Notes: generated from the letters alone by a model not told the origin. A stretch of 34,999 bases of DNA from a virus (IMGVR_UViG_3300023174_000099:64001-98999); one strand, 5' to 3'. Numbered from the stretch's first letter, positions 2,728-34,999 are shown. Program-made: numbers and translations.

Positions 2728-5700
2728 TTACAATCTGTTTACATTAGGACGTGTATAAACATTCACGTTAACATCTTCAAGGAAGCCTTGCCCAGAGGCA
2801 TTAGCAGCTTGTCTAAGCATCTTAATGATGTTTCCCTTCTGAGACACTAGAATATTCTCTACGCCAGAAGCATCTAGGGCTTGGATGTTGATAGTGGCAT
2901 TAACAGGAGCGGATCCCATTACATCATTGGCTGGAGTTACGTTGATTGGAGTTTCAGGAGTGATTACTTCAGGTCCCTTTTCTCCAACTACGAAGCCTCT
3001 GTTACCATAGCCTCTCATTAGTTCCCCACCGTAGGCTGAGCCGATAGTGCGGAAGTTTGAGGCATTTGTGCCCATACCTTGTGAGCCTCTTAGGAATCCA
3101 ACTTCTCCACCAGCATTAGCACTTGGTCCTCTTGCTAGATCGACCGTATCGCTACGTTTGCCTATTGAGAGGGTTGAGGGTGTTGCTGCTGCAGTGGACT
3201 TAGCTCCACTATTGTATTGAGTACCAGCAATAACAGCAATCTGAGCAGCACCCATAGCTCCAATTATACCCGCAAATATGGTTTTAGACACTGGATCTAG
3301 CATTGGAGAAGCAAGTACGCTAGCAATAGCTGCTGCTGTTGACATAACAGCTTGTGCCAGCATCAACTTCTTTTGAGTATTGAAGGACTTTCTTGCAATA
3401 TCATCCTTCTTTTTCTCTAGAGCCTGAAGTTTAGATATACTCTCAGCAGATTTTCCATCACGCTTTTGCTCAGCTGCTATTTCTCTATCAATAGAAGCAA
3501 TTCTAGCATCTGAAGAAGCTTTAGTTATACTTGAAATTGTAGATAATACTGCGGAAGCAGCATTTAATCCAGCGGCAAGCATTTCTTTGTTATTGGTAGC
3601 TTTACCTAGTTCTGAGAAAGCTCCCGATAAGTTAGCTATACCATCGCCTATCGCAACTACTATAGCACCCTCGGGACCTAACTCCATTAGGCTATCTCTA
3701 ATACGAGACATATTTGCGGAGACTATATCAGCTGTTAGAGCTAGTTTTCCAGCAATAGGTAGGGCTTCCGTAGATTCTTTCCCAAACTCTTTAAGAATAT
3801 TTTCTGTAATACCACGTGTTTCACCCATTATATCTCCTGGGCCAGAAGCACGTCTTTTAAATTTAACATTCTCTAGGTTCTTTGCGGCTATTTTTACACC
3901 ATTTTCAATTACTGCTGCTGCGTCTCCAGCATATTTTACAATGCTTTCTCCAAACTTAAGCTCACCGTTTACTAGGGTACCTCCAAGATTTTCGATAGAA
4001 GCTAGAATAGTTGACCGCTGACCAGATAGTGCTAACGGATCTCCAGATCTTTTGCGCTCGTCATCTATGCCTTCAAGTCTATTTTTTAACTCGGTCAGAG
4101 ATTGCTGTCGCTTGGCTTCAAGTAGTGCAAATTCTAACTTAATTAAAGCTACTTTCATATCCTTTTCTTGCTGTGCAATTTTAAGGGCTGTTTCAGCATT
4201 GGCTATTTCTTCACCACGTGATATGGTTTCATCAGAAACACCCAGTCTACGTAACTCTAATCGTCTAGTTATATTGGCTAAGTCTGCTTGCGACCTAATA
4301 TTATCAACTATGACACTCTGTATACGTTCTTGAATAGAAAGGGACTCTCTTAATAAGTTTAAACGCTCTTCTTCAGTATTTAAACCTATCTTATCTAAAA
4401 TAGCTTGCTGATTTTTGGCTTCGGTATTTTTAGTTTCCGCGGTATTACGTTCTTTAGTAGCATTTAATAAATCAGTATAAAATTTAACCTGGCTAGTATT
4501 ATTTAGTGATCTAGCTTTTTCAAGATTAATCTCTATTTCTCTAACTCTAAACTGTTGATCTACTTTTAACTGTTTTAACTTTTCTTCATTGTTGCGCTTA
4601 ATAGCATCTAATTCAAGCTTGAGAGTATTTAGTCCTCCTACTTTAGAATCAGCAATTCTAGCTTCTATATCTTGAGTTTCTAAAGCTAGATTCTTTGACT
4701 CATTCTGTAGCTGAGTTGTGGTCTTTAAATTATTTAACTTTTGAAGACTTACTGCAGCTCTCTCTTCCGCTTTAGTAGTAGCACCAAGGCCCGCCGCCTG
4801 TACTTTAGCTCTTTGAGCGGCTGTTTGCGCCGCATTTACTTCCCTCTGTCTACGAAGTTCAGCTTTTTCTAGTTCTTTTTGTTTTCTTAGCTCTTCTGGT
4901 GTAGCTCCACTACGTACCATAGCGTCAAAAGCTGCAAGATCAGAAATTGCAGATACTTTTTCAGCTGTACCAGACTTAGCCTGAGTTACTTTAGCTAATA
5001 AACCTTGTCTTTCTTGTTGTATAGTCTGACTTTTCATTAAATCAAGAAGTCTTTCTTCTTGTTTAATCTGAAGCTCTCTAGCCTCTAATTTTCTACCCTC
5101 GGCCTCTATTAAAGCTAGATTGGCTTTTTCTTGTTTAACCTGAGCAGCTACAATAGAGTTCTGTAGAGCAATCTGCTTTTTTACATCTTCGCCAGTTACT
5201 ATACCTTGTCTTTGTAGCGCAGAAAGCCTGGCTTGAGCTAGAGTTACTTGGGCCTGTGATGATATAGTTATTAGTTGATTATCTCTTAATATGTCTGAAT
5301 AGGCCTTTAGTTCATTCGGTATAGAGCTTGCTAGCTTTTTTCTTAGCTCTACCTGTATACCTACTTGTTCAACTATCTGAGAGTCAACTATAGCTATCTG
5401 GCCTCTATTATTTCCGGGGGCTTCTTCTAATTCTTTCCTTTTGGCTTTTAGAGCAGATATACTATCAGAGACTTGATCAAAAGATGCCTTTATTCTCTGA
5501 GTATCCACACTCATAATGTTTAGTACGCTGGGACCAATGGCTGTTAGTGCTTCTTGGAATTGCTCTACAGCTTTAGCTTTTTCTGGACTCTTTTCTAATG
5601 TGTATATTACCTGATTGAAAGCGGTATTAAGTTGTTCTATGCTTTTTAGTGGCTCATCATATTGAGTGCTAGCTCTTATTGATCTAGAAAAATCAGTCTG

Positions 5701-8917: not shown

Positions 8918-9793
8918 TTAACTCCTTATTATTGGTATAATTGTTACTGTATTATCAGTGAGTCTAAAATCGTAGACTCGGGTTAGTAATTCCTCTACAT
9001 TTAGTCGTCTGGTATAGACTGCTTCTGCTAAATTAAATGTAAGGAACGGCGGATTTTGATTAGAATCTGTGTATAGTTTAATAACTATCGGAACAGACGC
9101 ATCGAAGTCTGGACTACTTATAGAATTCTCTAGGATAAACTCAGTGACTGATCCTGAAACTCTTCTTTCAGTTAGGGAATAACTTTCTTTATACGCTATT
9201 TGCGAGACTACGCTTTTATGTAGCGTAGAATTCTTAGTCCATTCTATAGAATTATTAACTTCAAGATTAACTGCTGCAATAGAAGGTAGTACGATTCCAT
9301 CTACTGTAACTTCTACTCCCCTAATAATTGTGTAGGGATCAGTATTAGATACTTCTGGAGTAGCTGGAAGACTAGCAACTTCTGATAGAATCGAAGCGGT
9401 GCCAGAAACAGAAGCTGTAAAGACGGCTCTTGATTCTATATTGAAAGTAATATTCTCAATGACTGAGGTAGCCAGTTTGTATATTTTATTTGAGAAATCT
9501 ACATAAATATCAATTGGAGCAATAGTACCTGTTATATAGTCCGGCCCAAATAGGCCACTAAGCGGCGCTAGTTCAGTCGCATATTTAATAGGAATCGTAA
9601 AGCTAAAATTAGCCGGATTTGCTTCTACAATAGTAGCTCCCTGATTGAGAGCTAACTGATTATGTAAAGTTTTCTTATTGTAACTCTGTTCATTAAATGT
9701 TTGAGAAAAGCTAAGATCAGGATATACATCTATAGGGTATAGAATACTATCTATGTAAAAGTATAATCGACCTTCTTTTTTAAAGTTGTACAT
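8918..9793 (-). CDS. Minor tail / baseplate tube protein (T5 p140-like)
   Basis: True start is probably ATG 9793 (MYNFKKEG), preceded by GGAGGT. The track start at 9877 runs through a promoter and terminator. It follows the tail tube gene. Confidence 0.8.
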   Translation of the reverse strand: MYNFKKEGRLYFYIDSILYPIDVYPDLSFSQTFNEQSYNKKTLHNQLALNQGATIVEANPANFSFTIPIKYATELAPLSGLFGPDYITGTIAPIDIYVDFSNKIYKLATSVIENITFNIESRAVFTASVSGTASILSEVASLPATPEVSNTDPYTIIRGVEVTVDGIVLPSIAAVNLEVNNSIEWTKNSTLHKSVVSQIAYKESYSLTERRVSGSVTEFILENSISSPDFDASVPIVIKLYTDSNQNPPFLTFNLAEAVYTRRLNVEELLTRVYDFRLTDNTVTIIPIIRS

Positions 9794-26542: not shown

Positions 26543-28393
26543 TTATACTGTTAAACTTGGTAGTTGCGCATTAGCCCAACGAACGGGGTAGTAGCTGATG
26601 CTCCTAAGGTGGCCGTTTAGATAGTTACCTGATCCACTCCAGTTGGAGCCTAAGTACATACGATTCGATGCCGTATTAACGATACCCACAGTATCCGTAC
26701 GCGCTGCCTGTCCACCTAGGCTTTCACCGAAGTTATTTACTGCATATGCAAACGCATTTTTTATTGGCACCGCGACATTGGCGACGGAAAACGTGGTTAT
26801 ATCGCCAGCTTGTCCTGTACCGCCGACAACCAAATTAGCACCACGAAATGAGTTTCCGCTAGAGTAATTGCCATACATACTGTTGTTAAACGTGTTATCA
26901 GATATGGCATAGGGCAAACTTGTACTATTCGCACCAGCAACTTGATTACATTCTACAACAACCGTCCCCTCACTCTGATTGTACCAGCTAGAGAAGTTAG
27001 TGCCGGTCATCGAAGCATTGTCGGCTGCACGCGTGGACGTGGAGGCCGCGGTGGGGATGTAGCTGGTGGCAAACGCGCCGAGTTCGGTCTGTGCACCCCA
27101 GACATAAAAACTGTCCGTTCCAGTGCCAGCGATATTGCCGTTGCCTCCGGCATCTGTCGGATAGAGTTTCAAGCCAACCGACGTAAAAGCACCCGCGCTG
27201 GTGAATGTCACGGAACACCTAAACCAGCCGTTTCCTGCCGGCGTAATCGACGCTGCCGTTGCACCTCCCGCAGTAGACGCAGTTACTGCGGTGAGGTTGA
27301 ATTGCCCCACTTGAGTGCCAAATCCGGTAGCGTCGTTCTGGATGCGTATAAAGGGAGTTGCAGCGGCCTTAAGATACGTTGTCGCAGTATAAGACACGCC
27401 AGCCGCGCCCGATGCGGGAGCGTAATATTGTAATGTGTGGAAGGTGGTGCTAGTATTCGCAACAAAGGCGTCGGCGTTGGTTGTTCCGTCAGGTGAAACT
27501 GTAGCGTTAGCCGTTATCGAAACTGCGCTCTTACTCCACGCTGCGTTATCAAACTGCTCCGAATACAGAGCCAAGTTGACCCGCTGCTCCTCGATCAGCA
27601 AACCTCTTGACGCTAGCGTGACTGGGTCGTAGTCGAATCGTGGGCCATAATAAGCCGAAGCAACTGTCTGCACGTATGTAGATGGCTGTGTCTGGTAAGT
27701 GACTTGCTCAAACTGTGCTCCCCATACGAATAGACCGCTGGTACCATCGCCCGTGTAGGATGACGGCGCGCTGGTGCTGTTGAGGGAGAGGCGAATTTGA
27801 TAGCCCCCAGTTGTTGCGGTAGAAACAGGATAAGCCATTGAACATCGATACCATCCATTACCTACATCAGTGATCGTAGACGTTACCGTGGCTGACGGTG
27901 CGCCCGCAGTACCGTTCGTAAGATCAAAACCGGCAATGTAATTGCCACTGCCAGGAGCTTGTTGCGTAACAATAAGTTGAATAAATGTGCGTTCTCCTGC
28001 CTTTGCATATACACTAAAAACGTAGATTTGTCCTAGTGCGGGGGAAGGTACAAAGGGTGTATTAGGAGAAATCCAATGCCCAGTAGTAGCCGCCGTGTTC
28101 TCGACCAACTTATCCGCAGTGGTAGTACCATTCGGTGCCACAGTGGCATTGGGCGTAATGGTAGAAGCCGTCTTTCCCCAGCTCGCGTTGTCAAATTCCT
28201 CTGATCGCAGAACAAGGTTGTTAGGCGCATAGGTAACTCGTCCAGTCGAATCGACTAGGGTAGCGTTCGAAGCGCGGCTAAAAGTGACGCGACTATCTAG
28301 GGTCGTTCCGGCTAGGAAATTAAGGCTTAACGTTTTAATTAATGGCTTGTAAGTGCTTCCAACTAGGAAGCCAAGCGATATTGGTTTTGTCAT
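26543..28393 (-). CDS. Virion fibre/adhesin, single-module paralogue of 22373..26011
   Basis: Same motif set once (616 aa), with visible DNA-level similarity to both modules of the larger gene. Confidence 0.75.
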   Translation of the reverse strand: MTKPISLGFLVGSTYKPLIKTLSLNFLAGTTLDSRVTFSRASNATLVDSTGRVTYAPNNLVLRSEEFDNASWGKTASTITPNATVAPNGTTTADKLVENTAATTGHWISPNTPFVPSPALGQIYVFSVYAKAGERTFIQLIVTQQAPGSGNYIAGFDLTNGTAGAPSATVTSTITDVGNGWYRCSMAYPVSTATTGGYQIRLSLNSTSAPSSYTGDGTSGLFVWGAQFEQVTYQTQPSTYVQTVASAYYGPRFDYDPVTLASRGLLIEEQRVNLALYSEQFDNAAWSKSAVSITANATVSPDGTTNADAFVANTSTTFHTLQYYAPASGAAGVSYTATTYLKAAATPFIRIQNDATGFGTQVGQFNLTAVTASTAGGATAASITPAGNGWFRCSVTFTSAGAFTSVGLKLYPTDAGGNGNIAGTGTDSFYVWGAQTELGAFATSYIPTAASTSTRAADNASMTGTNFSSWYNQSEGTVVVECNQVAGANSTSLPYAISDNTFNNSMYGNYSSGNSFRGANLVVGGTGQAGDITTFSVANVAVPIKNAFAYAVNNFGESLGGQAARTDTVGIVNTASNRMYLGSNWSGSGNYLNGHLRSISYYPVRWANAQLPSLTV

Positions 28394-28417
28394 AAAAATT
28401 TCTCCTCATTTGTATGA

Positions 28418-28446
28418 ATTATACCAGTGTGGGGATTCTGCGTCAA
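28418..28446 (-). promoter_or_regulatory. Sigma70-type promoter for the fibre-TerS-lysis-TerL run
   Basis: TTGACG-17-TATAAT, then GAGGAG and ATG 28393. Confidence 0.8.
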
Positions 28447-28488
28447 GCTTTTTTTGAGTGAGGTTCCTAGACAGCTTTTTCTAGCACA

Positions 28489-29217
28489 CTAGAGTCTTAG
28501 GATTTCCCATCTGCCGTCCATGTGTTCTACAAGTGCGGTCTTTGACTCTACCCAGTCTCCGTCGTTCATATAGATAATATCATTTACGGTCTTTATCTCG
28601 GCATAATGAATGTGTCCGCAGATGACTCCGTCATAACCTTTTCGCTTGGCGTAGGCTGTAATGGTTAGCTCGAACTCGAAAATGAAATTGATCGCTTTCT
28701 TGACGCGATGTTTCAGCCACTTGCTAAGAGACCAGTATCCGAAGCCGAGTCGGTGCCTTATCCAGTTGAATCGGCTGTTTAAGTCGAGAATTATGTCATA
28801 GGCTTTGTCGCCCATGAAGCTGAGCCACGGTGACAGTCTAGTGATTCCGTCAAAGAGGTCTCCGTGTACGACGAGGTATTTCTTGCCGTCTAGGCCTTCG
28901 TGAACGATCTGATTGCAGATTTTTACGTTTCCGAAGTTGGCAGCGTATCGAATCATGGGTCTGAGGAACTCGTCGTGGTTTCCTGCGACGTAGATAATCT
29001 GGGTTCCTTTGCGGGACTTCTTGAGAAGGGTTCGGACCACATCAGTGTGGCTGTTTTTCCATTTGAACTTATTCTGCTGAATCTTCCATGCGTCTATAAT
29101 ATCCCCGACTAGGTATATTTTTTCGCTTTCTACGGTTTTGAGAAACTCGTTGAGTTCTGCGGCTTTCGAGTCTTTCGAGCCAAGATGAACGTCACTAATA
29201 AAAATTGATTTGTACAT
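28489..29217 (-). CDS. Calcineurin-like metallophosphoesterase, UDP-2,3-diacylglucosamine diphosphatase (LpxH/YbbF)-like family
   Basis: SDVHLG, VGDIID, AGNHD, VHGD.FD, ICGHIH, YMNDGDWVE. Confidence 0.88.
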   Translation of the reverse strand: MYKSIFISDVHLGSKDSKAAELNEFLKTVESEKIYLVGDIIDAWKIQQNKFKWKNSHTDVVRTLLKKSRKGTQIIYVAGNHDEFLRPMIRYAANFGNVKICNQIVHEGLDGKKYLVVHGDLFDGITRLSPWLSFMGDKAYDIILDLNSRFNWIRHRLGFGYWSLSKWLKHRVKKAINFIFEFELTITAYAKRKGYDGVICGHIHYAEIKTVNDIIYMNDGDWVESKTALVEHMDGRWEILRL

Positions 29218-29237
29218 AGGTCTCCTCCTTAAGTGGC

Positions 29238-29266
29238 ATTATACTAGAGTTGGGTTTAATTGTCAA
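29238..29266 (-). promoter_or_regulatory. Consensus sigma70 promoter for the metallophosphoesterase
   Basis: TTGACA-17-TATAAT, then AAGGAGGAG and ATG 29217. Confidence 0.85.
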
Positions 29267-29338
29267 TCTTTTTTTAGGTGGGGTACTGGGAGCGACGGTT
29301 AGAATAGTTCTTGACAGTTGGGGAGAAAAATTTAGTTG

Positions 29339-29367
29339 TTGACAAAACCGCCCCTTTATGCTATAAT
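29339..29367 (+). promoter_or_regulatory. Consensus sigma70 promoter, divergent from the previous one
   Basis: TTGACA-17-TATAAT; ATG follows 6 nt later. Confidence 0.85.
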
Positions 29368-29373
29368 CATTTC

Positions 29374-29958
29374 ATGATAAAGCATTGGACAATCGAGGAA
29401 GAGCAGACATTAAAGTCTATGAAAGAAGCAGGAGCCGATTTTTACGAAATCGCCCAGGAATTAAATAGAAGTGACGAAGCTATAAGGACTAGGTGGAAGA
29501 GACTAAGGGCTCGTGAGGGTAAAATTTCGCATATTGGGTGGAGTGAAGAAGAAATTGCATTACTGCACGAGCCATTATCCTATGAAGAACTAGTTCCTAA
29601 ACTAGGGAAAAGTAAGAGATCAATTCAGTCAATCTGTGAGAAGCTGGGGATAAGCAAGAGGTACCCTGGGGCTAATAATATTGGCACAATGAATAGAAGT
29701 TTACCTACCATACTATATTTGGTAGACTTTGGAAGTTTTAAAAAAGTAGGTATTACTCAAGTAGGAATTGAGGAAAGATTAAAGCAGGACGGTAACTATA
29801 ATATACTAGACTATTGCGAGTTAGATACAGATGCTGCTGTAGAAACTGAAAAAGAAATTTTAAAAAATATGCGACCATATTTGGTGCGAGGAACTGTAAG
29901 AAAAGGCTCTACTGAGTGCTTTGACTATCCCTGCGCCCAACTATCAGATTTACTCTAA
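29374..29958 (+). CDS. Putative homing endonuclease-like protein: W(T/S)xEE helical repeats plus GIY-YIG-like C-terminus
   Basis: HWTIEEEQTL and GWSEEEIALL; LYLVDFGSFKKVGITQ..IEERL. Same architecture as 1892..2674 minus the zinc ribbon. Start reassigned from 29311 to ATG 29374. Confidence 0.65.
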   Translation: MIKHWTIEEEQTLKSMKEAGADFYEIAQELNRSDEAIRTRWKRLRAREGKISHIGWSEEEIALLHEPLSYEELVPKLGKSKRSIQSICEKLGISKRYPGANNIGTMNRSLPTILYLVDFGSFKKVGITQVGIEERLKQDGNYNILDYCELDTDAAVETEKEILKNMRPYLVRGTVRKGSTECFDYPCAQLSDLL

Positions 29959-29999
29959 GTGGTACGTACTCGGTAGTCCGAGCGCATATATGTAAGACT

Positions 30000-30101
30000 A
30001 GTCTAATAACCGGGCCTATAGGTGTCAAGCAATTTCTTTCACATTACAAATTTGTAATGCAAATTATTTTTGTTGACTTCCCTTCCTCGCCGGCCTATAA
30101 A
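30000..30101. promoter_or_regulatory. Module A: leftward promoter, palindrome, rightward promoter
   Basis: Minus TTGACA(30028-30023)-17-TAGACT; CATTACAAATTTGTAATG at 30042-30059; plus TTGACT(30073)-17-TATAAA(30096). Confidence 0.8.
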
Positions 30102-30126
30102 GGGACATCAACAGGGAGCAAGACAG

Positions 30127-30279
30127 ATGTTTAAGAAATTCATTGCCCTTCGCATGTATCGCTATTATCAGCGCAAGGTTAAGCAAGAGCCTACTCTTGC
30201 CAACTATAGCGAGATGGCCAAATGAAGCAATCGCTGGTATCGGTTGGAATATCCCAACGCAATCCAACGGGCATGGTAA
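30127..30279 (+). pseudogene. Small ORF with an in-frame TGA (32 aa, or 50 codons if read through)
   Basis: MFKKFIALRMYRYYQRKVKQEPTLANYSEMAK*SNRWYRLEYPNAIQRAW*. GGGAG SD upstream; the final TAA overlaps the next gene's AAGGAG. Confidence 0.45.
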
Positions 30280-30291
30280 GGAGAAAAGAAA

Positions 30292-30501
30292 ATGAAGATT
30301 ACTTATGAAGAATGGAATTGCGATGGTATTTGGGCCGCCCATGGGGAGGACCAAATGCTTTGCATCAAAAAGGATAGAGGGAGCATTATCGTAGGAATTG
30401 AAAACTGCGATGGCACTATTGAGAATTCATGCACATATGCCGAATCCGAATATATGGAAGCCTTTTCAGACTTCCTAAAGAGAGGCACAGACAACGAATG
30501 A
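30292..30501 (+). CDS. Hypothetical pre-early protein (69 aa)
   Basis: AAGGAG SD; the stop is followed immediately by a module hairpin. Confidence 0.75.
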   Translation: MKITYEEWNCDGIWAAHGEDQMLCIKKDRGSIIVGIENCDGTIENSCTYAESEYMEAFSDFLKRGTDNE

Positions 30502-30504
30502 TAG

Positions 30505-30639
30505 ACTTAGGGCCGATTCGGCCCTAAGTTGGCGCCGATTTTACCAGGCCCCAGCGAATTTGTCAAGCGAAAAAATGCAGATTACAAATTTGTAATGCAA
30601 ATCTTTTCTGTTGACGTGGCCAGCCTGTAAGCCTATAAA
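30505..30639. promoter_or_regulatory. Module B: hairpin, GCGCC, leftward promoter, palindrome, rightward promoter
   Basis: ACTTAGGGCCG-att-CGGCCCTAAGT at 30505-30529; minus TTGACA(30566-61)-17-TAAAAT(30543-38); palindrome 30581-30596; plus TTGACG(30611)-17-TATAAA(30634). Confidence 0.85.
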
Positions 30640-30666
30640 GGGACATAACCAAGGGAGAACGACGAA

Positions 30667-30930
30667 ATGTTTGACATTACCTCAAATAAAGGTTTTCACA
30701 TGACTTTTGCTAACGGCTGGACTGTTAGCGTGCAATGGGGCAAAGGCAACTATTGCGATAACAAATATATCGGAAAATATGGGGAGACTCCCGCACCTAG
30801 CAAGGATGCAGAAATTGCGGCATGGGATGCCAATGGCGAATGGATGGTATTTGGCAATGATGATAATATGAAGGGATATTGCAGCCCTGATGAGGTTGCG
30901 GCCTTTATCGCAAAGATTGCAGCAATGTGA
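30667..30930 (+). CDS. Hypothetical pre-early protein (87 aa)
   Basis: AAGGGAG SD downstream of the module B promoter. GFHMTFANGWTVSVQWG...AEIAAW...GY..PDEVA looks like a common phage hypothetical family. Confidence 0.8.
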   Translation: MFDITSNKGFHMTFANGWTVSVQWGKGNYCDNKYIGKYGETPAPSKDAEIAAWDANGEWMVFGNDDNMKGYCSPDEVAAFIAKIAAM

Positions 30931-30933
30931 ACA

Positions 30934-31059
30934 GAGGTGTGTTACTTCGGTAACACACCTCGCGCCGATTTTAGCAGGTCGCGCAAAATTTGTCAAGCGA
31001 AAAAATCGCACATTACAAAAAAATAAGGGATTGCCATCCTGCTAGGGATTGCCTATAAA
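30934..31059. promoter_or_regulatory. Module C: UUCG hairpin, GCGCC, leftward promoter, half-palindrome, rightward promoter
   Basis: GAGGTGTGTTAC-ttcg-GTAACACACCTC at 30934-30961; minus TTGACA(30996-91)-17-TAAAAT(30973-68); plus TTGCCA(31031)-17-TATAAA(31054). Confidence 0.85.
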
Positions 31060-31080
31060 GAGTCATCAACAACAAAGGAA

Positions 31081-31563
31081 ATGGAAATGCCCTACGTAAT
31101 CTTTGATCTTGACGGCACGGTGATTGATAGCAGCCACCGCAAGGCAACACGTATAGATGGTTCGCTTGATTTAGAACATTGGCTGGAAAACAACACGCCA
31201 GAAAAGATTGCGCTTGACAAGCTTTTGCCGCTGGCGCGCGTGATGAAAATTCTGGCCAATACTTGCCATGTTATCGTCTGCACGGCCCGTGCAATTCAAC
31301 AGGCCGATTTGGATTTCATGGCCGCTAACGGCCTGAAATACAACGCTTTTCTGTCGCGTGAACATGGCAACAATGAAAGCGACGAAAGCCTGAAAGAGCG
31401 TCTTTTGTCCAACTATTTCAAGGGCTTGGGCCTTGCCAGCGTTGCAGACGCTAAGGCAATCTTTTTCGATGACAATCTGGCGGTGCTGGATGCTATCGCA
31501 AAGCTTGGCGTTACTTGCTATGATGCAACTATCGCTAATAATCGCCTAGCAAGGAGGGTTTGA
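31081..31563 (+). CDS. dmp: HAD-family phosphatase, T5 deoxynucleoside-5'-monophosphatase homologue
   Basis: IFDLDGTVIDSSHR...DGSLDL...D.LLPL...VCTAR...FFDDN..VL parallels T5 Dmp as recalled. The start may be ATG 31087 by SD spacing. Confidence 0.85.
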   Translation: MEMPYVIFDLDGTVIDSSHRKATRIDGSLDLEHWLENNTPEKIALDKLLPLARVMKILANTCHVIVCTARAIQQADLDFMAANGLKYNAFLSREHGNNESDESLKERLLSNYFKGLGLASVADAKAIFFDDNLAVLDAIAKLGVTCYDATIANNRLARRV

Positions 31564-31566
31564 GAA

Positions 31567-31632
31567 ATGGATTTCTTCACTATCATCATGATTTTGTTGG
31601 CAATTGTCATGGTGCTGCTATTCGTTGACTAA
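31567..31632 (+). CDS. 21-aa single-TM micropeptide
   Basis: MDFFTIIMILLAIVMVLLFVD. AAGGAGG upstream; the stop abuts the module hairpin. Below the ORF-track cutoff. Confidence 0.65.
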   Translation: MDFFTIIMILLAIVMVLLFVD

Positions 31633-31633
31633 G

Positions 31634-31739
31634 ATTTAGGGCCGAAATGGCCCTAAATTTGCGCCAAAATTTTAGCAGGTTTTTTCAGGTCTGTCAAGCG
31701 TTTTTTTCGCTTGACAGAATCTTTTTTCGCTGCTACCCT
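31634..31739. promoter_or_regulatory. Module D1: hairpin, GCGCC, back-to-back promoters
   Basis: ATTTAGGGCC-gaaat-GGCCCTAAAT; minus TTGACA(31697-92)-17-TAAAAT(31674-69); plus TTGACA(31711)-17-TACCCT(31734). The two -35 boxes form CTGTCAAGCG-T7-CGCTTGACAG. Confidence 0.8.
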
Positions 31740-31743
31740 TTCA

Positions 31744-31805
31744 GGGGTGGGAGGGAGGGCCAGGCGCGCTGGCACTGTATTAGCAGGCTAATACAGTGCC
31801 AGCGC
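31744..31805 (+). ncRNA. ORF-less unit: G-quadruplex motif plus 18-bp hairpin
   Basis: GGGGTGGGAGGGAGGG at 31744-31759; GCGCTGGCACTGTATTAG-cagg-CTAATACAGTGCCAGCGC at 31766-31805; lies between convergent promoters. Confidence 0.45.
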
Positions 31806-31807
31806 CG

Positions 31808-31909
31808 ATTTTAGCAGATCGCGTAAAATTTGTCAAGCGAAAAAATGCAGATTACAAATTTGTAATGTTGAAAATATGTCTTGCGCTGCGGCCTGCCTTT
31901 CCCTATATT
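31808..31909. promoter_or_regulatory. Module D2: leftward promoter, palindrome, rightward promoter
   Basis: Minus TTGACA(31836-31)-17-TAAAAT(31813-08); palindrome 31851-31866; plus TTGCGC(31881)-17-TATATT(31904). Confidence 0.8.
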
Positions 31910-31919
31910 CAATTCATGG
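31831..31919 (+). repeat. 89-bp perfect direct repeat, copy 1
   Basis: Identical to 32454..32542 by direct comparison. Confidence 0.9.
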
Positions 31920-31959
31920 GAAGCGGATGGGCCGCCTACCATGACAAGGAAACTAGAAT

Positions 31960-32280
31960 ATGACGACTGCAACTAAGGTGACTGAAAAGAACTATACGGA
32001 AGCGCAAGAGGCAATCTTGCTTGCCGCTGGCATTATCGACAATGCGAAGGCATTGGAAATCGCCGCCAAGATTGGCAAGGACGTGAAATCGGTTCGTGCG
32101 AAGGCCGTTCGCATGGGCATTTACAAGGCCGCTGAAAAGAAAAGCAAGAGCGGTGGCGCTGTCGAAAGCAAGGAAAAGATTGCTGCCGATATTGCCTTGC
32201 TTGTGGGCAAGAACATGGAAGGCCTTGAAAAGGCTCCCAAATTGGCCTTGCAAATCATCCGGGAAAAGCTTTCGGCTTAA
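31960..32280 (+). CDS. A2: T5 A2-like DNA-binding pre-early protein
   Basis: NYTEAQ...EIAAKIGK...SVRAKAVRMGIYK.AEKKSK.GG...K...IA......LEKA.K.AL parallels T5 A2 (SVRSKL...YQKSDKPRKVGGG...LESAKLETL, recalled). AAGGA SD. Confidence 0.75.
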   Translation: MTTATKVTEKNYTEAQEAILLAAGIIDNAKALEIAAKIGKDVKSVRAKAVRMGIYKAAEKKSKSGGAVESKEKIAADIALLVGKNMEGLEKAPKLALQIIREKLSA

Positions 32281-32301
32281 CCCATTGAAAAGGAAAGAGA
32301 A

Positions 32302-32332
32302 AGGCCGGGAGAAATCCCGGCCTAACTTTTTT
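32302..32332 (+). terminator. Terminator-like GAAA hairpin after A2
   Basis: AGGCCGGGA-gaaa-TCCCGGCCT-aac-TTTTTT. The same stem recurs at 34494-34513. Confidence 0.7.
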
Positions 32333-32353
32333 GTTAGAAAATGATTTTTTCGC

Positions 32354-32382
32354 TTGACAGGCCCGCGAAAGCCTGTTATAAT
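32354..32382 (+). promoter_or_regulatory. Perfect sigma70 promoter with no downstream ORF
   Basis: TTGACA-17-TATAAT. The spacer carries the inverted repeat CAGGC...GCCTG. Paralogue at 34703..34731. Confidence 0.8.
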
Positions 32383-32453
32383 GGGACAGGCGCCGAAAAA
32401 TTGCGCCAGAAATTTTGCACGCTACTTTAAATATAACATGCGAGGTTAGGCGC

Positions 32454-32542
32454 TGTCAAGCGAAAAAATGCAGATTACAAATTTGTAATGTTGAAAATAT
32501 GTCTTGCGCTGCGGCCTGCCTTTCCCTATATTCAATTCATGG
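32454..32542 (+). repeat. 89-bp perfect direct repeat, copy 2 (leftward -35, palindrome, rightward promoter)
   Basis: Identical to 31831..31919. Palindrome 32474-32489; TTGCGC(32504)-17-TATATT(32527). Confidence 0.9.
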
Positions 32543-32559
32543 ACAAGGAAGGAAAACAA

Positions 32560-32844
32560 ATGACGGTTCTGCAAAAAATCAAGGAAATGCCCGCTCCCGA
32601 ATTGGGCGGCTGGCTGGGAATGTGCCTTATTCATGGCGCAACTATTCCGACAACTGCCGGGAATATTCTTGGCTATTCCACTACTTTGCCGCCATTGTCG
32701 ATGGTGTTGCTTGTCTGGTCTGGCCTTGCATTGTTTCTGTGGCGCGCGATTGCCCGGAATGATTTTCTCTATACTGTTAGCAATGCTGTCGGATTTGTTC
32801 TGAATAGCGTATTGCTTGCAATTATTGTTTTTCCACTAGCATAA
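32560..32844 (+). CDS. Three-helix membrane protein, SemiSWEET/PQ-loop-like
   Basis: 94 aa from ATG 32560 (AAGGAAGG SD). GWLGM.LI..ATIP...W.GL.LF...AI.RND.LY..SNAVGF.LN..LL resembles the MtN3/PQ-loop pattern but lacks the PQ. Confidence 0.6.
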   Translation: MTVLQKIKEMPAPELGGWLGMCLIHGATIPTTAGNILGYSTTLPPLSMVLLVWSGLALFLWRAIARNDFLYTVSNAVGFVLNSVLLAIIVFPLA

Positions 32845-32853
32845 GGAAAGAAT

Positions 32854-33006
32854 ATGCACAAACACTGTAAAGGCTGCAAATTCCACTGGAAGGGTGGCGC
32901 AATCCCTAAATATCAGGATTGGTGCAGCAAATTTAGCGATATTGCATCGCACAAAGTAGGGCATTGCCTGCTAATGAAAGGAAAAGAAAATGTCCCTATC
33001 AATTGA
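32854..33006 (+). CDS. 50-aa Cys/His-rich peptide, probable metal binder
   Basis: MHKHCKGCKFHWKGGAIPKYQDWCSKFSDIASHKVGHCLLMKGKENVPIN; AAGGA SD overlapping the previous stop. Confidence 0.7.
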   Translation: MHKHCKGCKFHWKGGAIPKYQDWCSKFSDIASHKVGHCLLMKGKENVPIN

Positions 33007-33052
33007 TTCGCGGCCTGACCGTCGCACTATAATTGAAAGGAAACAACAATGA
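32990..33052 (+). CDS. Possible 20-aa peptide
   Basis: MSLSIDSRPDRRTIIERKQQ; AAAGGA SD; its TGA overlaps the next ATG (ATGA). Confidence 0.4.
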   Translation: MSLSIDSRPDRRTIIERKQQ

Positions 33053-33159
33053 TTTCATGGGTGGGCTGGAAAGGGCCTTTATTTAATCGCCATGATGTGC
33101 TGCTTCATGGTTATACAAGCTTTAAGCTTGGCCCCTTCATCTATTATCATTTCTGGTAA
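33049..33159 (+). CDS. 36-aa aromatic-rich peptide
   Basis: MISWVGWKGPLFNRHDVLLHGYTSFKLGPFIYYHFW; AAAGGA SD; the stop overlaps the next SD. Confidence 0.6.
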   Translation: MISWVGWKGPLFNRHDVLLHGYTSFKLGPFIYYHFW

Positions 33160-33170
33160 AGGAAAGAACA

Positions 33171-33422
33171 ATGAACGTGACTTTCAATTCCGATACTATC
33201 GCAATGCTTATTCATGAGATTGACGATATGCTTTGCAATGCCGACATTACTGCTGGCATGTGCGATGATTTATCCAATCTTCTCAATGCCTTGATGGCGA
33301 TTGGCGAAACAGGCTCTATCGTTATTGTGCCGGATGATAATAATATTGGGGATGATTGGGATGATGAAGACGATGGGCCAGATTCTCCCACCCCTAGCGG
33401 CTGGACTCTAATCAAAGCCTAA
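33171..33422 (+). CDS. Highly acidic hypothetical protein (83 aa)
   Basis: AAAGGA SD; Asp-rich C-terminus (DDNNIGDDWDDEDDGPD); followed by a module palindrome. Confidence 0.75.
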   Translation: MNVTFNSDTIAMLIHEIDDMLCNADITAGMCDDLSNLLNALMAIGETGSIVIVPDDNNIGDDWDDEDDGPDSPTPSGWTLIKA

Positions 33423-33428
33423 AGATCC

Positions 33429-33562
33429 GGTGTGTTGCTGTATTAATACAGCAACACACCCTGGCGCCAAAATTTTAGCAGGATTCCGTTGCGCTGTCAA
33501 GCAAAAAATTTGCTCTGAATGAAAATATTTTTCTTGTTTCTGCCGAATTTTTCTGTTATAAT
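33429..33562. promoter_or_regulatory. Module F: 32-bp perfect palindrome, GGCGCC, divergent promoters
   Basis: GGTGTGTTGCTGTATT|AATACAGCAACACACC at 33429-33460; minus TTGACA(33500-495)-17-TAAAAT(33477-72); plus TTGTTT(33534)-17-TATAAT(33557). Confidence 0.8.
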
Positions 33563-33614
33563 GGATTGATGCCTGCTCGCCAAGGTGTATTAGTCAGCTA
33601 GGACACTGGCGCCG
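33563..33614 (+). ncRNA. Small-RNA-like unit 1
   Basis: GGATTGATGC...TGTATTAGTCAGCTA...CTGGCGC directly after a TATAAT; no ORF; homologous to the minus-strand unit at 34553..34638. Confidence 0.45.
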
Positions 33615-33717
33615 ATTCTAGCACGCCTGCCTAGGCGTTGTCAAGCGAAGAAAAATTCGCTTTTGGATGCAATTTGGTTCTTTCCCCTGTTGCAATGCCT
33701 GCCGGTTCTGGTAATGT
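33615..33717. promoter_or_regulatory. Module G: leftward promoter and weaker rightward promoter
   Basis: Minus TTGACA(33644-39)-18-TAGAAT(33620-15); plus TTGCAA(33690)-16-TAATGT(33712) with an extended TG. Confidence 0.6.
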
Positions 33718-33761
33718 CTCTTTGTCGGCAGCGAGTCGGCAGCAACTAGGGATTACCCAAA

Positions 33762-34481
33762 ATGGGCAAGCAAGCTACTTTCCTGATTATCGACACGGAA
33801 ACCACCGTGCGCGGCAATGTTGCCGATTTCGGCGCTATCGTGGCCAATCGCAAGGGTGAAATTCTCGCATCTTGTGGCGTGTTGGTTCGGGAATTTTATC
33901 TTGATCGGGAAAATAACCCGCTATTTCATGATGTTACGGCTGACCCACTTTGGGGCAAGGCCAATCTTCCCCGCCGTTATGCGGCATATGACGCAATGCT
34001 GCAAGATGGCCGCCGAATGCTGGCAAGTGTTGCCGCCGTCAATCGCTGGCTTGCCAAGGTAAACGCCAAGTATTCGCCTGTTGCCACCGCCTATAATAAG
34101 GCTTTTGACTGGGATAAACTGGACAAAAGCGGTATTGATTGCCATATGTTTGAACAATCGTTCTGCCTCTGGCACGCTGCCGCTGATAAGTATGTGAAAA
34201 CAAAGGCTTTTCGGGACTTCATTCTGGAAAACCATTGTTTCAATCCCCCAACTAAAAAGGGCAACATGACTTTTAAGACTGATGCTGAAGTCATGGCGCG
34301 TTTTATTACTGGCAATGCCGATATGCCGAATGAGCCGCATACTGCACTTGAAGATGCCCGTGATTACGAATTGCCTATTCTTCTTGATATTATCAAGGCC
34401 AAAGACAAGGCAAAGTATTTGCAGCCAAAGCCTTATTCTTGGCAAGGTGTTCAAGTCAAGGATTGGTTCAAGCCAAAGTAA
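33762..34481 (+). CDS. DEDDh (DnaQ-like) 3'-5' exonuclease
   Basis: ExoI LIIDTETT, ExoII AYNKAFD, ExoIII EPHTALEDA. Confidence 0.88.
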   Translation: MGKQATFLIIDTETTVRGNVADFGAIVANRKGEILASCGVLVREFYLDRENNPLFHDVTADPLWGKANLPRRYAAYDAMLQDGRRMLASVAAVNRWLAKVNAKYSPVATAYNKAFDWDKLDKSGIDCHMFEQSFCLWHAAADKYVKTKAFRDFILENHCFNPPTKKGNMTFKTDAEVMARFITGNADMPNEPHTALEDARDYELPILLDIIKAKDKAKYLQPKPYSWQGVQVKDWFKPK

Positions 34482-34493
34482 AGGCAAAGTAAA

Positions 34494-34513
34494 GGCCGGG
34501 AGAAATCCCGGCC
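34494..34513. terminator. GAAA hairpin after the exonuclease, identical to the post-A2 stem
   Basis: GGCCGGGA-gaaa-TCCCGGCC; no U-tract on the plus strand. Confidence 0.55.
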
Positions 34514-34528
34514 AATACTTGCACGCCT

Positions 34529-34549
34529 TATTGATAATGATTCTCAATA
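34529..34549. promoter_or_regulatory. Fur-box-like inverted repeat 1
   Basis: TAT-TGATAAT-G-ATTCTCA-ATA: 13 of 14 matches to the 7-1-7 Fur consensus TGATAAT-N-ATTATCA. Confidence 0.6.
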
Positions 34550-34552
34550 GCA

Positions 34553-34638
34553 CGCGCCAGCGGGTGCCTTAGCTGACTAATACAGGCCACGCGAGTGTGT
34601 TACCCCACTAGGACACCATCCCGAACGCGCATCAATCC
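34553..34638 (-). ncRNA. Small-RNA-like unit 2
   Basis: Minus strand GGATTGATGC...TGTATTAGTCAGCTA...CTGGCGC directly after TTGACA(34668-63)-18-TAAAAT(34644-39). Confidence 0.45.
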
Positions 34639-34702
34639 ATTTTACCACGTTTGCCCGGCTTTTGTCAATAGAATAAATTTGCATCGGACAAAATTTTTCC
34701 TA

Positions 34703-34799
34703 TTGACAGGCCCGCACAAGCCTGCTATAATAGGGGCGCAGGCGCCAAAAATTTGTCAAACTGCGCCAAAATTTTACCACGTCTAGCGGGACGTGTCAA
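34703..34799. promoter_or_regulatory. Convergent promoter pair with about 39 bp between the -10 boxes
   Basis: Plus TTGACA(34703)-17-TATAAT(34726); minus TTGACA(34799-94)-17-TAAAAT(34776-71); two GCGCC-AAAA copies between them. Confidence 0.8.
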
Positions 34800-34832
34800 C
34801 AGAAAAATCGCACATTACAAAAAAGAAATGGC

Positions 34833-34886
34833 TTGACGGCACGAAAAAATCCCGCTACCATATATGGGTGGGAGGGCGGGGGAGGG
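34833..34886 (+). promoter_or_regulatory. Promoter followed by a five-run G-quadruplex motif
   Basis: TTGACG-17-TACCAT(34856-61), then GGGTGGGAGGGCGGGGGAGGG at 34866-34886. Confidence 0.7.
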
Positions 34887-34897
34887 CCGAAAATCCT

Positions 34898-34918
34898 TAT
34901 TGATAATGCGTCGCAATA
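34898..34918. promoter_or_regulatory. Fur-box-like site 2
   Basis: TATTGATAATGCGTCGCAATA; shares CCTTATTGATAATG and CAATAGC with site 1. Confidence 0.5.
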
Positions 34919-34999
34919 GCAGCAATGGCTGGGCCCGATATAATGCATTATGTTCAATAGATTTATCCCAATGAATCCAATGGGTTAGGTCGCTCCCAC

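Follow-up and report, generated by a model that had tools for sequence, protein, structure and literature searches.

Organization of the locus

The stretch of DNA analysed in this study, hereafter the window, comprises 34,999 nucleotides and represents the last 35 kb of IMGVR_UViG_3300023174_000099, a viral record of 98,999 bp in a single contig. Positions preceded by "contig" refer to the whole record, all others to the window. A long run of minus-strand structural genes extends up to 29217, where a minus-strand operon of 29 kb starts, and is followed by an array of small gene cassettes. At nearly every boundary between these cassettes we found a module composed of a hairpin and of promoters, one of which points leftward, against the genes. 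The modules continue over the contig junction to approximately contig 3.3 kb, and the array is therefore about 9 kb long. The last 123 nt of the contig are a repeat of positions 14-136; the two ends of the assembly thus overlap and close it on itself.

All conserved proteins of the array are encoded on the plus strand, in agreement with a preliminary description of this DNA, which had placed all credible genes on that strand. The minus-strand open reading frames (ORFs) are weaker shadows of the plus-strand genes. The possibility that they are coding ORFs driven by the leftward promoters was rejected, as their matches in relatives are confined to places where they shadow conserved plus-strand genes and are lower in identity than those of the genes themselves.

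Leftward promoters of the array

The preliminary description had listed ten minus-strand TTGACA boxes, and all of them were recovered, their reverse complement TGTCAA being located at 30023, 30561, 30991, 31692, 31831, 32454, 33495, 33639, 34663 and 34794 (Table 1). The hexamers and spacing it had reported also hold. The -35 box is an exact TTGACA in 10 of 10 cases, and the -10 box is TAAAAT in seven of them and TAGACT, TAGAAT or TATATT in one each, with a spacer of 17 nt in seven promoters and of 18 nt in three. Nine of the ten promoters also carry the TGn of an extended -10 element.

This number of sites is far above chance. When 30000-34861 was shuffled 2000 times with its dinucleotide composition preserved, and the minus-strand occurrences of TTGACA-N17/18-TAnnnT were counted, the mean was 0.05 and the maximum 1, versus 10 observed sites; the 1.9 kb of intergenic sequence, shuffled alone, gave a mean of 0.02. 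The rest of the 99-kb genome contains five minus-strand matches, three of which belong to the same array or to its left edge (29266, contig 1205 and contig 3245). The other two, the only ones away from the array and its extension past the contig junction, have poor -10 boxes.

Across seven contigs, the boxes and the spacing are fixed while the spacers are free to vary, 40 of 42 spacers being distinct, with about 30% identity, which bears out the signature of selection claimed at the outset. As far as can be judged from sequence, the leftward sites are very probably genuine sigma70 promoters that are under selection. Their class also includes members with a target. The promoter at 29266 drives a phosphatase gene, and the one at contig 3245 precedes a real minus-strand gene (contig 3122-2800), which has a ribosome-binding site and a canonical terminator. 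Since the class drives this gene as well as the terminated unit 34633-34485, it acts like a functional type of promoter, which is employed in either orientation. The ten promoters had been described as driving no gene. This is mostly correct, as eight of them face only the 3' end of a rightward unit, but it needs qualification for the promoter at 34668, which heads a terminated unit without an ORF.

Table 1. Window coordinates of the promoters, hairpins, terminators, genes and other elements of the array
Feature	Position	Strand	Remarks
Leftward promoter 1	30000..30028	-	TTGACA-17-TAGACT; without TGn and without GGCGC; overlaps GTCTAATAACCG
Leftward promoter 2	30538..30566	-	TTGACA-17-TGgTAAAAT; GGCGCC at 30531-30536; hairpin 30505-29 begins at about +1
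Leftward promoter 3	30968..30996	-	TTGACA-17-TGcTAAAAT, then cGGCGC
Leftward promoter 4	31669..31697	-	-35 box palindromic with that of rightward promoter 31711
Leftward promoter 5	31808..31836	-	closes the short ORF-less rightward unit 31711-31805
Leftward promoter 6	32430..32459	-	18-nt spacer, TATATT; faces the perfect rightward promoter 32354, -10 boxes 47 nt apart
Leftward promoter 7	33472..33500	-	directly after hairpin 33429-33460, which ends the four-gene operon
Leftward promoter 8	33615..33644	-	18-nt spacer, TAGAAT; antisense to the short rightward unit ~33545-33610
Leftward promoter 9	34639..34668	-	18-nt spacer, TAAAAT; heads the ORF-less unit 34633-34485
Leftward promoter 10	34771..34799	-	faces the perfect rightward promoter 34703
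Gene-proximal rightward promoter (example)	30073..30101	+	TTGACT-17-TATAAA, then GGGACATC; read directly
Perfect rightward promoter	32354..32382	+	followed by GGCGCC; convergent with leftward promoter 6
Perfect rightward promoter	34703..34731	+	followed by GGCGCC; convergent with leftward promoter 10
Perfect 16-bp palindrome ATTACAAATTTGTAAT	30581..30596		midway between back-to-back -35 boxes, 14 nt from each
U-tract-less hairpin	30505..30529		begins 4 nt past the upstream gene's stop codon; would form the 5' end of the leftward RNA
U-tract-less hairpin	30934..30961		3' end of gene 30667-30930
U-tract-less hairpin	31634..31658		follows the Dmp-like operon
Hairpin	31766..31805		16-bp stem, -33 kcal/mol; adjoins leftward promoter 5
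U-tract-less hairpin	33429..33460		12-bp stem
Canonical bidirectional terminator	32302..32323		T-runs on both strands; would stop leftward transcripts of promoters 6-8
Hairpin with U-tract only on the minus strand	34494..34513		terminates the leftward unit; located at the 3' end of the exonuclease-like gene
Leftward ORF-less unit	34485..34633	-	about 145 nt; ends at hairpin 34513-34494; first ~50 nt homologous to rightward unit 33545
HAD phosphatase gene	31081..31563	+	related to Dmp, a pre-early T5 enzyme (homologue, 32% identity, E 3e-17)
239-amino-acid cassette gene	33762..34481	+	no Pfam match; 52-65% identity in relatives

Architecture of the promoter modules

Read on the plus strand, a cassette boundary begins with a stop codon, followed after 4-7 nt by a perfect hairpin of 8-16 bp, after a further 0-3 nt by (G)GCGCC, and after 1-3 nt by ATTTTA, the reverse complement of the -10 box. 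Then come gCAG, which gives TGn, a variable spacer, TGTCAAGCG, which represents the reverse complement of the -35 box, and an A/T-rich tract. Beyond this tract lie a weaker rightward promoter, a ribosome-binding site and the ATG of the next gene. An alignment of 42 leftward promoters from the seven contigs places the information at the A/T-rich upstream tract, at cgCTTGACA, at ctgC with TAaAAT, and then at cGGCGC. The search pattern required the hexamers and GGCGC; the other conserved columns, namely aatttttcgC before the -35 box (a UP-like A/T-rich tract) and ctgC before the -10 box, were not imposed by it, and neither was the random spacer. At spacer positions 1-12, the pairwise identity among the 42 promoters is 30%, which corresponds to random sequence. 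GGCGC, which is invariant after the -10 box within the class, is enriched 6-8 times in the array.

About 20 of the 33 promoters considered in five phages are followed, 6-14 nt past the -10 box, by the start of a hairpin (-14 to -33 kcal/mol), and the predicted leftward start, 7 nt past the -10 box, coincides with the foot of the hairpin. No T-run was found on either strand beside the approximately 20 hairpins that adjoin leftward promoters, so that in neither direction do they qualify as intrinsic terminators. A terminator with a displaced U-tract, supplied by ATTTTA, was also considered and rejected, the T-run lying 8-10 nt beyond the stem. As canonical U-tract terminators are present in the same arrays, the U-tract-less hairpins constitute a distinct device. 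The geometry of the leftward promoter is fixed to this upstream hairpin and not to the downstream promoter, the -35 boxes of back-to-back promoters being 13-44 nt apart. The four-gene operon at 32560-33422 has no internal leftward promoter.

Conservation and rearrangement of the cassettes

Relatives were found by a pattern scan and by protein-anchored searches of IMG/VR contigs from other samples. Module arrays are present on at least seven related viral contigs (G001, G002, G003, G005, L032 with L037, L040 and L027), and on every one of them leftward promoters are antisense to cassette genes. An exact 16-mer scan of IMG/VR returned 30 stretches, which by our estimate is about the chance expectation, and only contigs with multiple copies were retained.

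The Dmp-like, exonuclease-like, membrane and 106-amino-acid proteins share just 37-82% identity between phages. At the boundary leading from the gene of the 106-amino-acid protein to that of the membrane protein, the sequences of five phages cannot be aligned except for a shared succession of elements: a canonical terminator and a perfect rightward promoter come first, then GGCGCC with the leftward -10 box, a free spacer and finally TGTCAAGCGAAAAAA. The convergent pairing of leftward promoter 6 with the rightward promoter at 32354 is kept at the orthologous boundary in five phages. Such a pattern of conservation, seen at the level of sequence, is the signature of function rather than of recent duplication.

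Gene order differs among all five arrays that were compared. In variant contigs from other samples, 30560 is joined to 32454, with the loss of three cassettes and with 37 nt common to both sides of the joint, or 30551 is joined to 30990, with the loss of one cassette. The comparison with the promoter-early stem-loop (PeSL) cassettes of T4-type phages, which had been proposed initially, is thus appropriate, as relatives differ in their gene order and natural deletions have their end points exactly in modules. In contrast, the terminal repeat of T5 itself, a type of sequence in which the preliminary description had suggested looking for the motif, contains no such array, and its four promoter-like matches include none that is antisense to a gene. 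The feature is therefore not a general T5 trait.

Rightward promoters and central elements

With regard to the rightward partners, most match the consensus at about 7-10 of 12 positions. Three are perfect (29339, 32354 and 34703), and two of these are followed by GGCGCC. The typical rightward cassette promoter comprises TTGACT, TTGACG, TTGCCA or TTGCGC, 17 nt, and TATAAA or TATATT, and the weak -10 boxes include TAGAAG and TAATGT. Each leftward promoter had been said to be paired with a rightward one, giving about 21 promoters in 5 kb. The partners do exist, but they are mostly weaker than the leftward promoters, and the total depends on the leniency of the counting. The idea that the cassettes are bracketed by convergent promoters proved accurate, the array being a chain of convergent promoter pairs. 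Short rightward units that lack an ORF are closed in the same way as coding cassettes; the one at 31711-31805 (plus strand) consists of a promoter, a G-rich run and a 16-bp hairpin.

The rightward promoters of 31711-31805 and of 34833-34886 have poor -10 boxes (TACCCT and TACCAT), and a G-quadruplex-type run with a GGGTGGGAGGG core is located at their start site. Both units lack an ORF and are each closed by a leftward promoter. This type of G-run was not found in the other arrays examined.

The palindrome ATTACAAATTTGTAAT has further copies at 30043, 31851 and 32474 and is confined to the array. It occupies the centre of the modules in this phage (G000) and in G002, and it is absent from 5 of the 7 arrays examined. 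A fixed activator complex at the central palindrome was consequently rejected as a general explanation. In the G005 array (L021, reverse strand), with which the G003 array is grouped here, perfect or near-perfect DnaA boxes (TGTGGATAA) lie between the back-to-back promoters in place of ATTACAAATTTGTAAT. The injection-stop region of T5 is also rich in DnaA boxes (Davison, bioRxiv 10.1101/866236).

Boundaries of the array

The 12-mer GTCTAATAACCG, at 30001-30012 in the window, occurs in exactly one copy per array and always at the left edge in five phages, with differing flanks; the other carriers are the arrays of G001, G002, G005 and L040. It is a candidate for a genome terminus, a terminal-repeat boundary or a packaging signal. 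As it overlaps the -10 box and the spacer of leftward promoter 1, the latter may not be a promoter at all.

Contig depth was examined over 27000-34999 in run X1, the likely source sample. It is 16.8 over the structural genes and up to about 30586, and to the right of this position it rises to 21-28, over the array and for some 1.9 kb beyond the contig junction. The depth of the array thus exceeds that of its left side by a ratio of about 1.5, rather than 2, which may point to a collapsed terminal repeat, or to strains that occur together and have the array in common. Directly after the array, an ORF-poor block at contig 3650-4190 (L023) carries four copies of the palindromic GAACTTCGTTC within 370 bp; G003 and G005 have one copy each of this palindrome. 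The block is reminiscent of the untranslated repeat and injection-stop region with which the T5 terminal repeat ends on its right side.

Proposed role of the leftward promoters

The interpretation we favour, to which we assign a probability of roughly 0.5, is that the leftward promoters are head-on closers, which would stop read-through and limit the expression of the cassettes. We were led to it because the leftward promoter is fixed to the upstream hairpin, closes every unit and is absent from the inside of the four-gene operon. Each rightward unit, whether coding or ORF-less, faces at its 3' boundary a consensus-grade promoter directed back into the unit, and a polymerase at this promoter, or leaving it, would meet the cassette polymerase at the hairpin. 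Such a collision could end read-through into the next cassette without a U-tract, which would keep shuffled cassettes autonomous. Collisions, together with an antisense RNA stabilized by its 5' hairpin, may also damp cassette expression or limit it in time. The hairpin would then have two uses, as a 3' stabilizer of the sense RNA and as a 5' stabilizer of the antisense RNA. Judging from what is generally known of promoter escape, the combination of a perfect -35 box, an extended -10 box and a GC-rich start region should result in high occupancy and slow escape, which would suit a roadblock. We infer initiation at the leftward sites, and likewise the effects of collision or antisense pairing, from this arrangement.

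Several observations weigh against this interpretation. The metatranscriptome run X20 yielded contigs that span several cassettes and the phosphatase gene, which are unstranded and come from a variant that is 90-95% identical; they can show neither a leftward start nor its absence. The promoter preferences of the host are assumed. A polymerase held at the leftward promoter would probably stall the oncoming polymerase before the hairpin is copied, and a purely static roadblock therefore does not explain the presence of a hairpin at +1. In addition, the invariant GGCGC exceeds what a promoter needs and may have a further function. Finally, one leftward promoter follows a canonical terminator (contig 2698-2733), and another (contig 1205) follows a stop codon without a hairpin.

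A variant of this interpretation, which we regard as possible although not probable, is that the promoters serve to park polymerase and not to make RNA. Fast capture followed by slow escape would turn the host holoenzyme into a roadblock that is specific for both sequence and orientation. The promoter and the U-tract-less hairpin would then replace an intrinsic terminator and insulate the mobile cassette, in effect as a portable terminator made of a promoter. The roadblock could possibly be released once the phage or the host changes the polymerase supply.

Alternative explanations

Somewhat less likely than parked polymerase is a temporal switch, in which the leftward promoters would form a separately regulated class, marked by the shared cGGCGC discriminator, that fires later or upon supercoiling, silencing the cassettes by antisense transcription and reading on into the operon at 29217. 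The hairpins do not terminate leftward RNA, and five of the ten promoters have no leftward terminator before the minus-strand operon; two leftward terminators nevertheless cut off the other half. This 29-kb operon has a sole consensus promoter of its own, at 29266, and minus-strand genes flank the array on that side in G000, G002 and G003. The temporal promoter classes of T5 are also known to differ mainly in the discriminator (PMC7472727). However, there is no known regulator, no sigma factor of its own was found in the genome, and a temporal switch would leave unexplained both the start fixed to the hairpin and the presence of a promoter at every boundary.

It is improbable that leftward firing acts as a booster, in which divergent transcription would create local negative supercoiling, or polymerase would be recruited through the A/T-rich centre, and the weak rightward promoter of the cassette would thereby be activated while the linear DNA, just injected, is torsionally relaxed. 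The twin-domain model of supercoiling is established. The promoters are placed back to back around an A/T-rich centre, with strict symmetry in G000, where 14 + 16 + 14 nt surround a perfect palindrome. The weakness of the rightward -10 boxes noted above fits as well. Nevertheless, it is with the upstream hairpin that the geometry is conserved, the -35 to -35 distance being unconserved, and the central element varies by phage, from a palindrome to DnaA-box-like sequences or nothing recognizable. Several leftward promoters, such as 33644 and 34668, even lack an adjoining cassette promoter.

Similarly doubtful is a function at the level of DNA, besides or instead of promoter activity, as a recombination site, as the target of a phage protein, or as a T5-type nick site with a GCGC core. 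It would account for the exact location of the natural deletions in modules, including the joint with 37 nt common to both sides, and for the invariance and enrichment of GGCGC. The consensus of the major T5 nicks, R/GCGCRGG (PMC3517423), shares the GCGC core, and the annotated T5 nick at 9748 also adjoins a perfect palindrome. On the other hand, recombination needs only homology and would not keep the hexamers, TGn and an exact spacing across fully diverged spacers. The T5 nick has no adjacent promoter, and the match to the RGG after GCGC is poor.

The least likely of the explanations retained concerns DNA entry, in which polymerases loading at many close, strong promoters would pull in or hold the entering genome, in the manner in which the E. 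coli polymerase pulls in the T7 genome. With its Dmp homologue, the array appears to correspond to the first-step-transfer region of T5, and it may lie in a terminal repeat, considering the rise in depth from 16.8 to ~25 near 30586, the 12-mer at the left edge and the non-coding repeat block after the array. If the left edge entered first, as in T5, leftward polymerases would, however, presumably run off a free end without exerting force. The hairpin at +1 would also be left without explanation.

A polymerase sink, which the preliminary description had put forward beside shut-off and DNA entry, was considered unlikely and rejected on stoichiometric grounds, as one ~9-kb DNA per infected cell could hardly titrate the host polymerase.

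Relation to known systems

PeSL cassettes (Arbiol 2010, PMC2839356; Comeau 2014, PMC4122927) resemble the modules in that composites of a stem-loop and an early promoter bound small, variable early genes, that the order of these genes is shuffled and that indels end in the motifs. The host phage of the present modules is a distant T5 relative with a T5-like capsid, and not a T4-type phage. In addition, while PeSLs have a single co-oriented promoter, the modules described here add a second, stronger promoter in the opposite orientation, fixed beside the hairpin. The preliminary description knew of no PeSL version with a conserved antisense promoter, and in the PeSL paper that was searched there is no mention of an antisense or bidirectional element. 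Mobile cassettes made of promoters and stem-loops are known; what the array adds to them is a conserved, mostly gene-less antisense promoter.

The closest counterpart in part order is synthetic. Brophy and Voigt (2016, PMC4731013) placed a unidirectional terminator and a constitutive antisense promoter after a gene and found that its repression scales with antisense promoter strength and is due mostly to collisions. The parts have the same order at the 3' end of the gene, and the antisense polymerase is free to enter it. In contrast to the synthetic part, the version in the array is natural, occurs at every cassette and is conserved across phages, and its hairpin lacks a U-tract on both strands, so that even sense transcription meets no conventional terminator there.

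Head-on collisions positioned by stem-loops terminate convergent genes in E. coli (Wang, Watters, Ju and Liu 2022, bioRxiv 10.1101/2022.10.23.513370). There, too, a stem-loop between converging polymerases sets where read-through stops, but both polymerases come from real genes, whereas in the array one would come from a dedicated, gene-less promoter that starts at the hairpin.

Face-to-face promoter pairs, such as pR/pL of coliphage 186 and the dual promoters of helD/pps, also have a strong antisense promoter opposing a sense promoter tens of bases away. At helD/pps, a convergent pair controls helD, the antisense promoter has an extended -10 box TAAAAT, and a strong antisense promoter can hold the sense promoter off until the polymerase supply changes (PMC12802891). 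The spacing in face-to-face pairs is 45-55 nt, and the pair 32354/32459 has 47 nt between its -10 boxes. In the array, however, only this pair, 34703/34799 and ~33530/33644 are this close; the others are 300-1000 nt apart, across a whole cassette.

The pre-early terminal repeat of T5, finally, shares with the array a Dmp homologue, strong sigma70 promoters and a non-coding repeat block after the genes, but it consists of two divergent operons without antisense promoters, and its A1 and A2 were not detected in the array phage.

Antisense promoters of bacteria and phages are often dismissed as noise, whereas here they represent the best conserved non-coding element of an early-gene array. If they are indeed head-on insulators or limiters, they would represent a natural equivalent of a device that was conceived independently in synthetic biology. 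They would also explain how shuffled cassettes remain transcriptionally autonomous without conventional terminators, and they would offer a compact, testable model for programmed polymerase collisions.

Genome context and additional features

The ~9-kb array is probably of the pre-early type and resembles the pre-early region of T5. The T5-like pre-early setting suggested by the preliminary description is in keeping with the presence of a Dmp homologue and of a T5-like capsid and protease; the latter two form a fused protein in the window with about 37% identity to its counterparts in T5-like phages. Dmp is a hallmark pre-early enzyme of T5. A sequence search of the genome gave no match to T5 A1 and A2, which represents weak negative evidence. 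The DNA of the array phage was seen in lake and freshwater metagenomes of several studies, and these uncultured freshwater T5 relatives are a group whose pre-early region is organized quite unlike that of T5.

The isolate phage collection contained no DNA match to the region or to a single module, and thus no cultured relative, and a search of the same collection with the 239-amino-acid protein gave one weak match only. This protein may be a DnaQ-like exonuclease, as suggested by a DxE motif. An Rfam scan of 29000-34999 revealed nothing near the gathering score. A phage-specific sigma factor was dropped as a reader of the leftward sites after a search of the genome with Sigma70_r2, which identified no phage-encoded sigma factor.

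A protein family of 106-150 amino acids without a Pfam match is encoded at 31960-32280, at contig 1486-1795 and in every related phage, each array having two or three copies that have diverged; the family is a candidate for a DNA-binding protein that regulates the module. Two genes of the Myb/T5orf172 type (29339-29377 and contig 374-410) have perfect or near-perfect promoters, the -10 boxes of which lie just 7-8 nt before the ATG, and their predicted mRNAs are therefore leaderless or nearly so.

An imperfect palindrome of about 27 bp, CTTATTGATAATG..TC.CAATAGCA, is present in three copies, at 34526-34552, 34895-34922 and contig 200-227, and is similar to a Fur box or an operator. In a contig of another sample, the first copy (34552) is joined to the sequence beyond the third.

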